Below, one piece after another: positions 6,303-9,156 of a stretch of DNA of 24,574 nt. Within the stretch, counting starts at the first letter, position 1, and each line of letters begins with the position of its first letter. The stretch covers positions 1 through 24,574 of the IMG/VR virus record IMGVR_UViG_3300032330_001059, one strand, 5' to 3'. The translations under genes and the position numbers were made by a program. The stretch comes from a virus (lineage: Duplodnaviria > Caudoviricetes). The notes beneath the pieces were generated by a model. The model did not search any database. It saw only the letters and a program-made list of their open reading frames with translations, and was not told the origin of the DNA.

Positions 6303-7360
6303 ATTAACTCCAATGACTGCTGTGCAGTGCGGATGTTCTGCAATTCCATGTAGGCAGGGTTCAACTCACAGCCAATGTATTGCCGCCCAAGGTTCTGCGC
6401 CACTTGTGCCGTTGTGCCACTTCCCATGAATGGGTCAAGCACAATGCCTCCAATAGGTGCGCCAGCAAGGATGCATGGTTCAATTAGTTCTGATGGAAAT
6501 ACTGCGAAATGTGCGCCAGCGTAAGGTTTAACTGGAACTAACCAGACGCTTCGTTTGTTTCTGTCTTCTCTAGGAATATACATACGTCCTTCATCGTTTC
6601 TTAAAGTTGCAGAAGCATCGCCATCTCTAAATTTTCTTGGTTTGCCCATGCTTTCAACAGGTTCTTTTAATGCATCAATGTCGTAATAATATTTTTGTGA
6701 CTTGCTTAATAAAAAAATGTACTCATGCGCCTTAGTGCATCGGTCTTGCACACTCTCAGGCATAGGATTAGGCTTGTGCCAAATAATGTCTTGGCGCAGA
6801 TACCAACCATCAGCCCTTAGTGCAAACGCCAGCATCCAAGGAATGCCGATAAGGTCTTTGGTCTTTAATCCTGCCTCATGCAACTTGTCTAGATTGCGGT
6901 CATTTGCTGGCATATTGTTTCTGCCTTCACGCTGATATTCGGGGCTTGCTCGAGCAAATCCATTGCTGTTGCAATAGCTGTCCCCAATGTTTAACCACAG
7001 TGTCCCATCGTCCTCCAGCACATCCCACACACAGCGGAACACCTCAACCATAGCTTGTATGTATTCTTCGGGGCTTTCCTCTAGTCCTAGTTGGTTGTCA
7101 ACACGGGTAGAACCACACTTCTTACAAACATCTTTGTATTGTTTTTTATAACCTTCTTGGTTTCTGTCAGCTCGTTGACCACCATGTTTATTTTCACTTT
7201 CAACATGGTCACAGGTAATATCACCACCCTCCCACTTTGCTGTGCCGTAGTCTCTAAGCCCATAATAAGGGGGGCTAGTCACGCAAGTCTGTGCTTTGAT
7301 ACCTTGCTCTTTCCATCTCCGCATGGTTTCCCTGCAATCACCAAATTCAATTTTGTTCAT
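6299..7360 (-). CDS. Orphan DNA amino-methyltransferase (N4C/N6A, beta class) with Cys-rich insertion
   Basis: Catalytic TSPPYY near the N-terminus, SAM-binding VLDPFMGSGTT near the C-terminus, and a CDH...CKKCG insert. Confidence 0.93.
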   Translation of the reverse strand: MNKIEFGDCRETMRRWKEQGIKAQTCVTSPPYYGLRDYGTAKWEGGDITCDHVESENKHGGQRADRNQEGYKKQYKDVCKKCGSTRVDNQLGLEESPEEYIQAMVEVFRCVWDVLEDDGTLWLNIGDSYCNSNGFARASPEYQREGRNNMPANDRNLDKLHEAGLKTKDLIGIPWMLAFALRADGWYLRQDIIWHKPNPMPESVQDRCTKAHEYIFLLSKSQKYYYDIDALKEPVESMGKPRKFRDGDASATLRNDEGRMYIPREDRNKRSVWLVPVKPYAGAHFAVFPSELIEPCILAGAPIGGIVLDPFMGSGTTAQVAQNLGRQYIGCELNPAYMELQNIRTAQQSLELI

Positions 7361-7707
7361 TGCCGCCTTAATTGAGCCAAACGCTCTTTGATGTGATCGG
7401 GCATTGGAGAGGCTTTGGCAATGTCTGCCTTGATCTTGGCTAGGGCAGGGTCTACAAGCGGTTTAAACGCCATTTCAGGCACTTCTGCGCCATCCCAGCG
7501 TTGTTGGTTCAGATAGACCAATGGAGCAGGGATAAACGCCCCATTTGCCTTTAGCCATTGCTCTGTGGTCTTCATCCAGGCTAGGTGCTTGATTATCTGG
7601 TCTGCTTGGGTATCGCAGTAGGACTTATCCCAAACCTTCTTGCAAGCCGATTTAGCACCTTTTCTGGGACTACTAGGCCATGCCTTCCAAAAGTCTTCAA
7701 ACATCAT
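7357..7707 (-). CDS. Replication-initiator C-terminal-domain-like protein (stand-alone)
   Basis: MFEDFWKAWPSSPRKGAKSACKKVW...FIPAPLVYLNQQRW resembles the FxxFWxxYPxK...PxxxxWLNxxRW domain at the C-terminus of phage replication/replisome-organizer proteins. Confidence 0.7.
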   Translation of the reverse strand: MMFEDFWKAWPSSPRKGAKSACKKVWDKSYCDTQADQIIKHLAWMKTTEQWLKANGAFIPAPLVYLNQQRWDGAEVPEMAFKPLVDPALAKIKADIAKASPMPDHIKERLAQLRRQ

Positions 7708-7937
7708 TTGCCCCCACTCATCATGTATTCTTTAAAGTCTTCATAATAATCCCCACGTTCCATCAGTCTTATCAAGACATGATTATTGCCAACAGTGTGG
7801 TGATCCTCAATGAACTCTGCATATCGGTCTTCCAACTCGTATGTGTTCATTTTGTCCTCAAACTCTTGTTCAGACATAGGTTCTCCAAGGGTGGATAGAC
7901 TGAGTATCCTTCCCTCTCCAGACTTGTCAGTGTTCAT
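7704..7937 (-). CDS. Hypothetical acidic protein
   Basis: 77 aa, AGGAG SD, ATGA coupling to the next gene; second possible start at 7877 with its own GGAG. Confidence 0.75.
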   Translation of the reverse strand: MNTDKSGEGRILSLSTLGEPMSEQEFEDKMNTYELEDRYAEFIEDHHTVGNNHVLIRLMERGDYYEDFKEYMMSGGK

Positions 7938-7944
7938 TATTGAC

Positions 7945-8270
7945 TCCTATTAAGATTGAAAAACTAAAAAAGCCCCAAGTGCGCTTGACGGGTTTGTTCG
8001 CTTATACATCTGGCCTTGTTTTCCACCGTGTACCAGATGCTTCAACAGTCGCCAAACCAACGCTGTTCGCCTTTTGCCCTTGGGTGTGTAGGGTGCGGTG
8101 TTTTCTTCCAAGCCGTCCATGCAAACGCTCTGCTATCGTGTGGAGTACGATCAAGAACGCAAAAGGCCACTTACTACTGCGTTCCAGTGCTGACCCACTG
8201 TCCCTTTCGGGGTGAACGCATGAGTAAATGGCCTCATGTTTCGTCTATGCGGGTCAGCGCTTTTGACGAA
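7945..8270 (-). ncRNA. Putative structured leader/ncRNA B with kissing loops
   Basis: Hairpin TTCGTC/GACGAA presenting loop CTGACC. Three-way junction AGGCCATTTACT/AGTAAGTGGCCT, TGCGTTC/GAACGCA, CCC-GAAA-GGG, CAGTG-GGTCAG-CACTG. A further multi-stem domain spans 7981-8151. G-U pairs and the GNRA loop favour the minus strand. Confidence 0.7.
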
Positions 8271-8273
8271 CGA

Positions 8274-8318
8274 AATATACACCATAAAAAAACAGGTTGT
8301 CAAGTAGGGGTTTTCCTG
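8274..8318 (-). promoter_or_regulatory. sigma70 promoter for ncRNA B/replication module with upstream box
   Basis: TTGACA (8303-8298), 18 nt spacer, TATATT (8279-8274). CAGGAAAACCCCTA box abuts the -35. Confidence 0.7.
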
Positions 8319-8671
8319 GGTACAAAAGAATCTCCAAATCTGCTAGGAAGTTGTAAGAAGTCGTAACATCCACGGCGAAAGACTGACATTCTCAGTTCTT
8401 TGCCATCATACTTTTCTGTGGTTGACCCATTTTCAATTCTCATGGCTGCACCACTGATGGCCCTGTTCATCTCCATGCGCCCGTACTCAGTCAGATGCCA
8501 CTTTTCTTGATGGTTGATGACATAGCCAAACCTCTCCAGTTCAGGCAGGTATCTTTGATAGTGAAACGATACAGAGTTGTTGTCTGTATGGCTGTGGGTC
8601 ATCTCAAGCATTGTCCTTGGGCCACTTGATAGGCGCTTGAGCAGTGTTCGATGGGTGAGGTTTAAACGCAT
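8300..8671 (-). CDS. Winged-helix-like DNA-binding protein (putative regulator)
   Basis: LLKRLSSGPRTMLEM...YLPELERFGYVINHQEKWHLTEYG wHTH wing pattern; GGAG SD. Confidence 0.65.
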   Translation of the reverse strand: MRLNLTHRTLLKRLSSGPRTMLEMTHSHTDNNSVSFHYQRYLPELERFGYVINHQEKWHLTEYGRMEMNRAISGAAMRIENGSTTEKYDGKELRMSVFRRGCYDFLQLPSRFGDSFVPRKTPT

Positions 8672-8721
8672 TTGCTTGTCTCCAAAAACCTCAGTATGAT
8701 GGTATTTATAGTTTTATGCAC

Positions 8722-8736
8722 TAGGGAAAACACCTA
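8722..8736. promoter_or_regulatory. TAGGGAAAACACCTA box in the divergent intergenic region
   Basis: Identical 15-mer at 9585-9599; variant at 10877-10891. Confidence 0.75.
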
Positions 8737-8805
8737 TTCCCTGCATCTTTTTTCTGTGCGAAAGTCCTATCACTGCTATTTGGCAGTGGTCAACAGGAGT
8801 TACAA

Positions 8806-9156
8806 ATGCCAACCGATGAAGAAAGATTTAAATACGAGTGCTGGGCGATTGTCCAGGAGTTAGACCCAGATGATATTGCTGATGCAATCCAAGACAGCGT
8901 TGCCCTGGTGGAAGCCATCAAAGCAAACCATGCAGAAGATGTTGCAAGCATCGTGATGAACAGAGTAGAACTCAAGGTGCGGCGCAGGGCTGAGTTGCGA
9001 GTGTTTGATGTTGTCAAGACCCCTTGGATTGATGACATTGAAGAACTGCAAGCCTACAGGAATCTACGCATTGAGCGAGTGCAAAAGGCACTTGAAGAGC
9101 GCAAGATTCTGGAAGCTAAAATGGATGGCCCTTTTCAACAAATGTTTGATGAGTGA
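8806..9156 (+). CDS. Hypothetical protein
   Basis: 116 aa, CAGGAG SD, first gene of the rightward operon. Confidence 0.85.
   Translation: MPTDEERFKYECWAIVQELDPDDIADAIQDSVALVEAIKANHAEDVASIVMNRVELKVRRRAELRVFDVVKTPWIDDIEELQAYRNLRIERVQKALEERKILEAKMDGPFQQMFDE

Follow-up and report, generated by a model that had tools for sequence, protein, structure and literature searches.

We describe an uncatalogued, pseudoknotted RNA of about 280 nt that lies behind its own promoter in the slot where a phage replication initiator would have its DNA-binding half, next to a gene for the remaining half of that initiator. Such headless initiator genes nearly always have a structured RNA beside them, and no such RNA was found at the loci of full-length initiators. 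We propose, at about even chances, that this RNA opens a replication origin, with the headless mini-protein recruiting the helicase.

Results

A promoter, a structured RNA and half an initiator

The window, by which we mean the whole stretch of DNA analysed here (24,574 nucleotides), is the entire record G000, a 24.6-kb fragment from a small tailed phage. The elements considered below are the following:

8300-8671, minus strand: upstream gene of 123 aa, possibly winged-helix (weak Pfam hit, E 0.015, below the cut-off)
8274-8303, minus strand: sigma70-type promoter, TTGACA-18-TATATT (-35 at 8303-8298, -10 at 8279-8274), 11 of 12 consensus matches
8240-8270, minus strand: leader hairpin 1, whose loop GCTGACCC is complementary to a loop within hairpin 2
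8161-8234, minus strand: leader hairpin 2, a long stem with a GAAA-capped arm, then a T run; terminator-like
8107-8152, minus strand: 5' pseudoknot of the core (helices 1-3), a short hairpin, its loop pairing with 8110-8107 and enclosing hairpin P2 (8127-8114)
8077-8093, minus strand: core hairpin P3 (helix 4), with a loop ending in an invariant CACCC
8044-8067, minus strand: core hairpin P4, whose loop 8058-8053 pairs with 7996-7991 as a pseudoknot (helices 5 and 6)
8006-8040, minus strand: core hairpin P5, with loop segments GGTGG and CAAGG complementary to the 3' target at 7894-7886
7916-8001, minus strand: P6 and P7, the latter pairing 7979-7972 with 7922-7916 and enclosing a 48-nt loop (75% A+T)
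7886-7915, minus strand: 3' target CCACCCTTG (7894-7886) and the alternative hairpin P8 (7915-7888)
7704-7877, minus strand: acidic ORF of 57 aa, probable start ATG 7877; accessory insert
7357-7707, minus strand: C-half of a replication initiator, headless, 116 aa, starting MMFEDFWKAWP; all-helical AlphaFold model, mean pLDDT 79

An earlier sequence-only reading of this DNA had pointed to the near-consensus promoter, to a 116-aa protein beginning at FEDFWKAWP that would be an initiator C-domain, and to the lack of an iteron array, and all of these hold. The PHROG matches of the protein, to the replication initiators 9474, 270 and 9327, are confined to their C-terminal part, and 114 of its 116 residues align with the C-half of the 233-aa P0157 (41% identity); homologues of greater length, with 25 hits of 215-277 aa, have an N-terminal HTH_36 or DUF1376. 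On this evidence it is the intact C-terminal half of the DUF1376/HTH_36 initiators with the N-terminal origin-binding domain absent. The short form has 511 relatives in IMG/VR, 80 of which were kept for analysis, and it is a family rather than a broken gene: the open frame ahead of the C-domain measures only 1-63 codons in 80/80 kept relatives, and the 11 best cluster representatives are 100-156 aa long. No repeat family of more than two copies was found in 7200-8900, hence there are no iterons within the headless gene. Structure prediction, which the same reading had suggested as a check, yielded the all-helical model but no clear structural match: Foldseek against the PDB gave none, the best VIA Z was 5.1, neither offered a fold match supporting helicase loading, and a PDB sequence search found nothing, results which are silent on a DnaT-like fold. 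The nearest Atlas family, Phg_2220_C (0.92, 128 features shared), is a lead only.

A short acidic ORF does lie between the RNA and this gene, as had been read, but the boundary shifts, since the core runs about 60 nt into the ORF as first drawn. The 77-aa version of the ORF had no Pfam or PHROG hit. The ORF is confined to close relatives; elsewhere the ATG at the position of 7877 is the start codon of the mini-protein itself, or the insert consists of other genes. The 123-aa gene upstream occupies the slot of a short Cro-like gene in relatives.

Covariation in the core RNA

The paired region between promoter and ORF had been taken for one element of about 330 nt. It is indeed structured and larger than that, but it consists of two modules, an exchangeable leader of about 110 nt between promoter and core (8270-8161, minus strand) and a separate core of about 280 nt (8152 to about 7875, minus strand), which we call type I. 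The core model, which was drawn from the same 54 non-redundant relatives (mean identity 69%) used to test it, has 53 pairs in 11 helices, with 95% of cells pairing against 78.7% in shuffles (misalignment depresses helices 1, 2, 4 and 8) and compensatory changes on both sides in 33 of the 53 pairs. None of 500 shuffles reached any of the measures, and slid controls dropped to 26-43%. The proof of structure thus comes from covariation, the folding energy being modest (z -2.5, with a lower score, -3.6, in one of 17 sampled 331-nt windows elsewhere; 8 shuffles each) and weak evidence by itself. Among the paired cells of the core, G-U outnumbers A-C by 343 to 23, and the minus strand is therefore the structured strand.

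Four pairings are long-range or form pseudoknots: the 5' knot, the P4 loop with 7996-7991, and the two P5 loop segments with the 3' target. The P4 stem and the P4-loop pseudoknot are paired in 99.7% and 99.1% of cells. Across 107 sequences, the second P5 segment and the target read A-T in 70, T-A in 30 and otherwise in 7, and the first segment changes together with the target in 2/107; in five distant members both segments still pair with the target, using other letters. As the target can either fold into P8, which overlaps it in 104/107 sequences, or pair with the P5 loop, the 3' end is a two-state switch, and a ribosome-binding-like GGAG adjoins it. The A+T-rich loop closed by P7 varies in length and sequence. 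Window positions 8030 and 8017 face each other across the P5 loop, and each covaries with target base 7887, which suggests two pairing registers or two target copies. At 7898-7890 the target also overlaps a look-alike matching 7 of 9 positions of the DnaA-box consensus. In two members (L132, L196) the P7 loop contains CTGATGA...GAAA, which resembles a hammerhead core; the motif is missing from the others.

A degenerate or frameshifted N-terminal coding region at the site of the core is ruled out by frequent indels together with the compensatory pairs. In the complete genome MW202484 a 119-aa "hypothetical protein" is annotated across the RNA (33533-33892; L081:6426-6785); it has no PHROG hit and is probably no gene.

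All 4227 Rfam families were searched against the window and 18 relatives: nothing but tRNAs reached gathering score and nothing credible appeared at E<=5, and thus neither a ribozyme or intron (group II included) nor RNA I or RNA II was matched. The covariance models of ROOL, GOLLD, ARRPOF, PAGEV, GEBRO and int-alpA likewise gave no match at gathering score, and the Betaproteobacteria-1 RNA (RF02932) had 0 matches in G016 and G036 and none over the cut-off in 5/5 records. By pattern scan, which includes some chance hits, the core is estimated at about 230 IMG/VR stretches and 270 metagenomic ones. Contigs from 4/4 RNA sequencing runs of four studies span 7837-8276 at low depth, like neighbouring genes, a weak hint of a transcript.

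The leader as an exchangeable control element

A comparable promoter site precedes the elements of most relatives in the alignment. Behind it, the leader hairpin 1 loop takes more than 25 different sequences, and its complementarity to the bulge or loop of hairpin 2 is retained: the complementary run averages 7.3 nt in 98 distinct leaders against 4.9 +/- 0.1 with shuffled partners. The T run following hairpin 2 counts just 4 T in the window and was not flagged by the promoter/terminator scan. Leaders of like layout stand ahead of 2/24 inspected full-length initiators (L484 and L488 of one type, L555 of another), most of the 24 having a different short leader instead. Because similar leaders also head some full-length initiators, the leader appears to be what controls the replication slot, and here the controlled item is the core RNA. 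In the consensus scan, which misses weak promoters, no plus-strand (antisense) promoter was found below 8383.

The short leader, GGCTAG...CCGAAAAG...CCTGCC, is conserved about 100 nt before the initiator ATG in L501, L518 and most inspected full-length DUF1376 loci, and had no Rfam match in the two loci scanned. It also lies directly ahead of one headless gene (L655), where it is all that is found upstream.

Further core types

A second uncatalogued family, type II, has a core of about 250 nt (e.g. L064:2700-2960), stands behind the same kinds of leader and occurs in about 190 stretches in IMG/VR. A 10-mer inside it is a direct repeat of the ten DNA bases just past its last helix, and the two covary: they agree at 7.3 of 8 positions against 4.4 +/- 0.2 when shuffled (2000 shuffles, n=49), the repeat columns are the top covarying ones, and the rule holds, with new sequences, in 2/2 copies found later by BLAST. 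Apart from T-run matches in 5/49, no reverse complement of the repeat lies nearby. Two copies of the same sense are unable to base-pair, and the transcript offers no third copy complementary to them, so that the template DNA strand is the simplest partner. Mismatches are of the kind G inside/A outside in 44 cases and the reverse in 1, with 38 of the 44 at one conserved position, a bias that fits what pairing of the internal segment with the template strand would allow. As to an iteron reading of the type II repeat, repeats differ in 50/98 pairs of loci with proteins at >=95% identity, many of the large differences being register shifts. In type I, including the core of the window, no repeat of this template-strand type was found; its P5 loop shows complementarity to the sense strand, be it that of the RNA or of displaced DNA.

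At least three core types are known. The third (L649) lies about 430-70 nt upstream of a headless gene at 2501 and has only the 5' pseudoknot in common with type I. Five type II cores (L050, L364, L400, L439, L467) carry in a variable arm a perfect 9-mer of the DnaA-box consensus, which could be chance or a contact for host DnaA. HNH-like genes directly follow type II cores in L033, L050, L378 and L418 and are a possible route for swapping core types.

Headless genes and RNA cores occur together

The sequence-only reading had suggested comparing stand-alone with full-length homologues, and the comparison separates them. The headless loci and RNA loci are related and redundant, so that the counts are not independent and stand for few independent events. 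One core lies within 3 kb of 77/80 headless genes (60 type I, 17 type II, 0 both), and 2 of the 3 loci with neither have less than 1.3 kb upstream; at full-length DUF1376 initiator loci either core was found in 0/80. In a wider set of 79 headless loci, 43 have type I, 23 have type II and 13 have neither core within 2.5 kb; this set includes divergent headless proteins beside divergent type I cores in which the letters of loop and target are conserved (L595), as well as the third core type. Starting from the RNA pattern, a headless gene accompanies 47/48 type I loci with at least 2 kb of flank on both sides (43 downstream, 4 upstream) and 37/47 well-flanked type II loci, being missing in 10/47. 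The four type I loci with the gene upstream show that the RNA is not that gene's translation leader, and this role, as the only one, is rejected, the RNA lying downstream of the gene in several phages.

Among 32 RNA-bearing records that are 88-100% complete, DUF1376 occurs in 1/32 (G013, the lone record that has both the RNA and headless gene pair and a DUF1376 gene), HTH_36 in 0/32 and a DnaB-like helicase in 0/32, and exactly one headless gene is present in 18/18 RNA-bearing records checked. Conversely, 23 whole records with a full-length initiator have type I in 0/23 and type II in 2/23.

The window, its syntenic 34.1-kb relative G016 (99% complete; core RNA 100% identical) and MW202484 were scanned for other replication genes, the scans covering 34/69 called ORFs of G016 (the ORFs that neither had a scanned equivalent in the window nor were obvious shadows there) and 85 of 113 of MW202484. 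These sets contained nothing recognisable as an integrase, polymerase, primase, helicase or loader, and the 85 MW202484 ORFs no conventional initiator (DUF1376, HTH_36) or DnaB-like helicase. Beyond the content of the window, G016 adds only portal, capsid and tail genes and HNH-type nuclease/endonuclease genes. The sequence-only reading was therefore right that none of these genes is recognisable, and no conventional initiator or helicase was found in complete relatives, but lack of a helicase is not special to RNA carriers: of 14 controls, chosen for their DUF1376, 4 have a helicase and 10/14 have none, and a missing helicase is ordinary in such phages. Genes for Erf or Sak, for SSB and for a resolvase are present in RNA-bearing genomes; no par genes were recognised, and GC skew tracks gene direction and points to no origin. 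The RNA-bearing phages are abundant small freshwater phages, with a host likely among freshwater bacteria; GTDB holds only 4 matches to the core pattern, each on a contig of 1.6-8.8 kb from an assembled genome, and the taxonomy of these genomes is mixed, for which reason we name no host.

Cassettes outside the initiator slot

The promoter-leader-core cassette also adjoins terminase, capsid, virion or tRNA genes without a mini-protein. Wherever the record of such an off-slot cassette could be checked, the phage also encoded an initiator of full length or a gene resembling one, which makes at least five phages (G007 and G008 with type I, G011 with a distant type I, G001 and G003 with type II); the fragment G006 has a type I cassette behind three tRNA genes after terL (L579, 5500-6400). 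Most lie a short way ahead of terminase, capsid or virion genes on their own strand, one type II core lies ahead of a primase-helicase, and one distant type I core after a primase. Thus the RNA needs no mini-protein, whereas the mini-protein is seldom found without RNA. The idea that the RNA replaces the DNA-binding half stands insofar as the RNA accompanies headless and not full-length loci, but cassettes in phages that keep a full-length initiator are evidence against a strict one-for-one swap.

Discussion

The structure of the RNA, the anatomy of leader and core, the identity of the protein and the phyletic pattern are established. Lambdoid origins sit within the initiator gene, and as the headless gene has no iterons, another origin is needed. 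We consider the chances about even that the promoter-driven RNA in the slot of the missing DNA-binding half is an RNA-opened origin served by a helicase-recruiting mini-protein; every mechanistic step after folding of the RNA is one that we infer. RNA polymerase would read past the leader when its loop-loop pairing permits, and the core would fold co-transcriptionally. The P5 loop could then capture the 3' target, whether on the same RNA or on the non-template DNA strand once displaced, freeing it from P8, and the A+T-rich segment and the 3' part of the transcript would remain open as an R-loop. The mini-protein would bind the opened DNA or RNA and recruit host DnaB, helicase loading being predicted, and synthesis would be primed by the RNA end or by host primase. 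The variable leader pairing of 7-9 nt may set replicon specificity or copy control. In favour of this origin model count the close company of headless genes and cores, the near-absence of conventional initiators and helicases from RNA-bearing records, the covarying type II repeat and the existence of RNA-dependent replicons in plasmids and prophages. Against it stand the off-slot cassettes, type II in initiator-bearing phages, the core-less headless loci, G013, the lack of a template-strand repeat in type I, the relatedness of the loci and the missing fold match for helicase loading, and the pairing of P5 loop and target can be purely intramolecular.

A related reading, which we hold to be possible if doubtful, is an RNA-guided initiator: core RNA and headless protein would act as an RNP that pairs with one or both DNA strands at the RNA's 3' end, replacing helix-turn-helix and iterons, and several unrelated ornate RNAs would have been recruited independently across freshwater phages.

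It is unlikely, in our estimate, that the element is a stand-alone ornate RNA gene, a scaffold, decoy or sponge like ROOL or GOLLD that moves as a cassette, with the headless protein needing no RNA to initiate at recombination or restart structures. The self-contained cassette at several genome positions, once behind tRNA genes, the Erf or Sak, SSB and resolvase genes and the plurality of core types would all suit such a gene. However, it leaves unexplained the near-obligate linkage to headless genes and the exclusion from full-length initiator loci, as well as the type II repeat, which covaries outside the paired body of the RNA.

Somewhat more improbable to us is a cis-acting processive antiterminator heading long operons into terminase and virion genes. 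The HK022 put RNA is a processive antiterminator of this kind. The terminator-like hairpin that ends the leader, the position of most off-slot cassettes and the switch between P8 and P5 pairing beside the GGAG would be expected of such an RNA, whereas the headlessness of the initiator, the placement of some RNAs downstream of the mini-protein gene and the missing ATG after P8 in several members that keep the target would not. Q-family antiterminators are absent from 30/30 records, RNA-bearing or not, and the comparison is thus silent on this explanation.

We think it quite improbable that a ribozyme or selfish element is involved, with loop segments recognising a target in the manner of group II intron EBS and adjacent HNH nucleases spreading it. 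Two loop segments do pair with neighbouring segments of the target, the 5'-3' order being the same in both, the cassette is mobile and HNH-like genes follow some type II cores, but Rfam holds no matching ribozyme or intron, no host gene is interrupted, and none of the RNA-library contigs spanning the element shows a junction from which it has been removed. Lastly, that the structure works as folded ssDNA, as a priming or nicking site, is very improbable: covariation is blind to the difference, as PMC5737381 states for plasmid motifs, but the excess of G-U pairs and the dedicated promoter that travels with the cassette favour minus-strand RNA, the alternative that the sequence-only reading had put first, and the GAAA tetraloop of the leader and, weakly, the RNA-library contigs of four studies agree.

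The element at best resembles RNA-dependent replicons and is a member of none. With lambda O-like initiators (DUF1376 PF07120 / HTH_36 PF13730) it shares the C-terminal FxxFWxxWP...YLNxxRW domain and tail, the position after a Cro-like gene, the promoter and the leader; it differs in having no N-terminal DNA-binding domain or iterons and in the RNA of about 280 nt in or beside the gap. IS110 bridge RNA pairs with DNA and works with a DEDD recombinase. The type II core may similarly pair with both DNA strands around a shared CC, a likeness unseen in type I, yet its target is its own locus and no recombinase was recognised nearby, DEDD recombinases being absent from the PHROGs-scanned ORFs of the window, G016 and MW202484. 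Like ROOL and GOLLD, the element is a large, pseudoknotted and movable phage RNA, sometimes near tRNAs; unlike them, it is smaller, has no Rfam match and is tightly linked to a headless initiator. ColE1 RNA II uses an internal G-rich stretch much as type II may use its internal segment.

RNA-dependent replication is described for ColE1 (PMC5043065, PMC8683028), MRB plasmids (PMC3035462) and mycobacterial prophages (PMC7157519). In PMC5043065, RNA II is likewise non-coding and transcribed from a promoter, its alternative folds are proposed to open the origin, it has a 5' loop-loop specificity element, and the trigger of hybrid formation is called speculative; there is no sequence likeness, however, and here the specificity pairing lies inside one transcript, no antisense promoter was found and a phage-coded protein is present. 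MRB plasmids (PMC3035462) and ARRPOF, PAGEV and GEBRO (PMC5737381, PMC12990946) likewise have structured RNAs of 220-470 nt at Rep-less origins, with four pseudoknots in ARRPOF, but they are plasmids without an initiator fragment, and none of them gave an Rfam match here. Closest in layout are prophage origins of cluster A mycobacteriophages, where a non-coding RNA also replaces the RepA gene in the same slot of sister phages (PMC7157519); those origins, which lie beside parABS, maintain the prophage as a plasmid and can be dispensed with in lytic growth, whereas here neither par nor integrase genes were recognised and half of the initiator is retained. In the open literature, as far as it was accessible, neither this RNA nor headless initiators with RNAs are described, and the supplements of PMC10690425 (10,006 candidate viral RNAs) and PMC5737381 may hold an entry.

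The two new RNA families, uncatalogued and 250-280 nt long with four or more long-range pairings, are good targets for structure determination. If the cassette is indeed the origin, these phages would replicate by means of a single 116-aa protein plus a folded RNA, combining ColE1-style priming with lambda-style initiation, and the guide pairing of type II with DNA could, if true, be reprogrammable. We know of no function for most ornate RNAs, and the finding offers a concrete, testable job for a large uncatalogued phage RNA.
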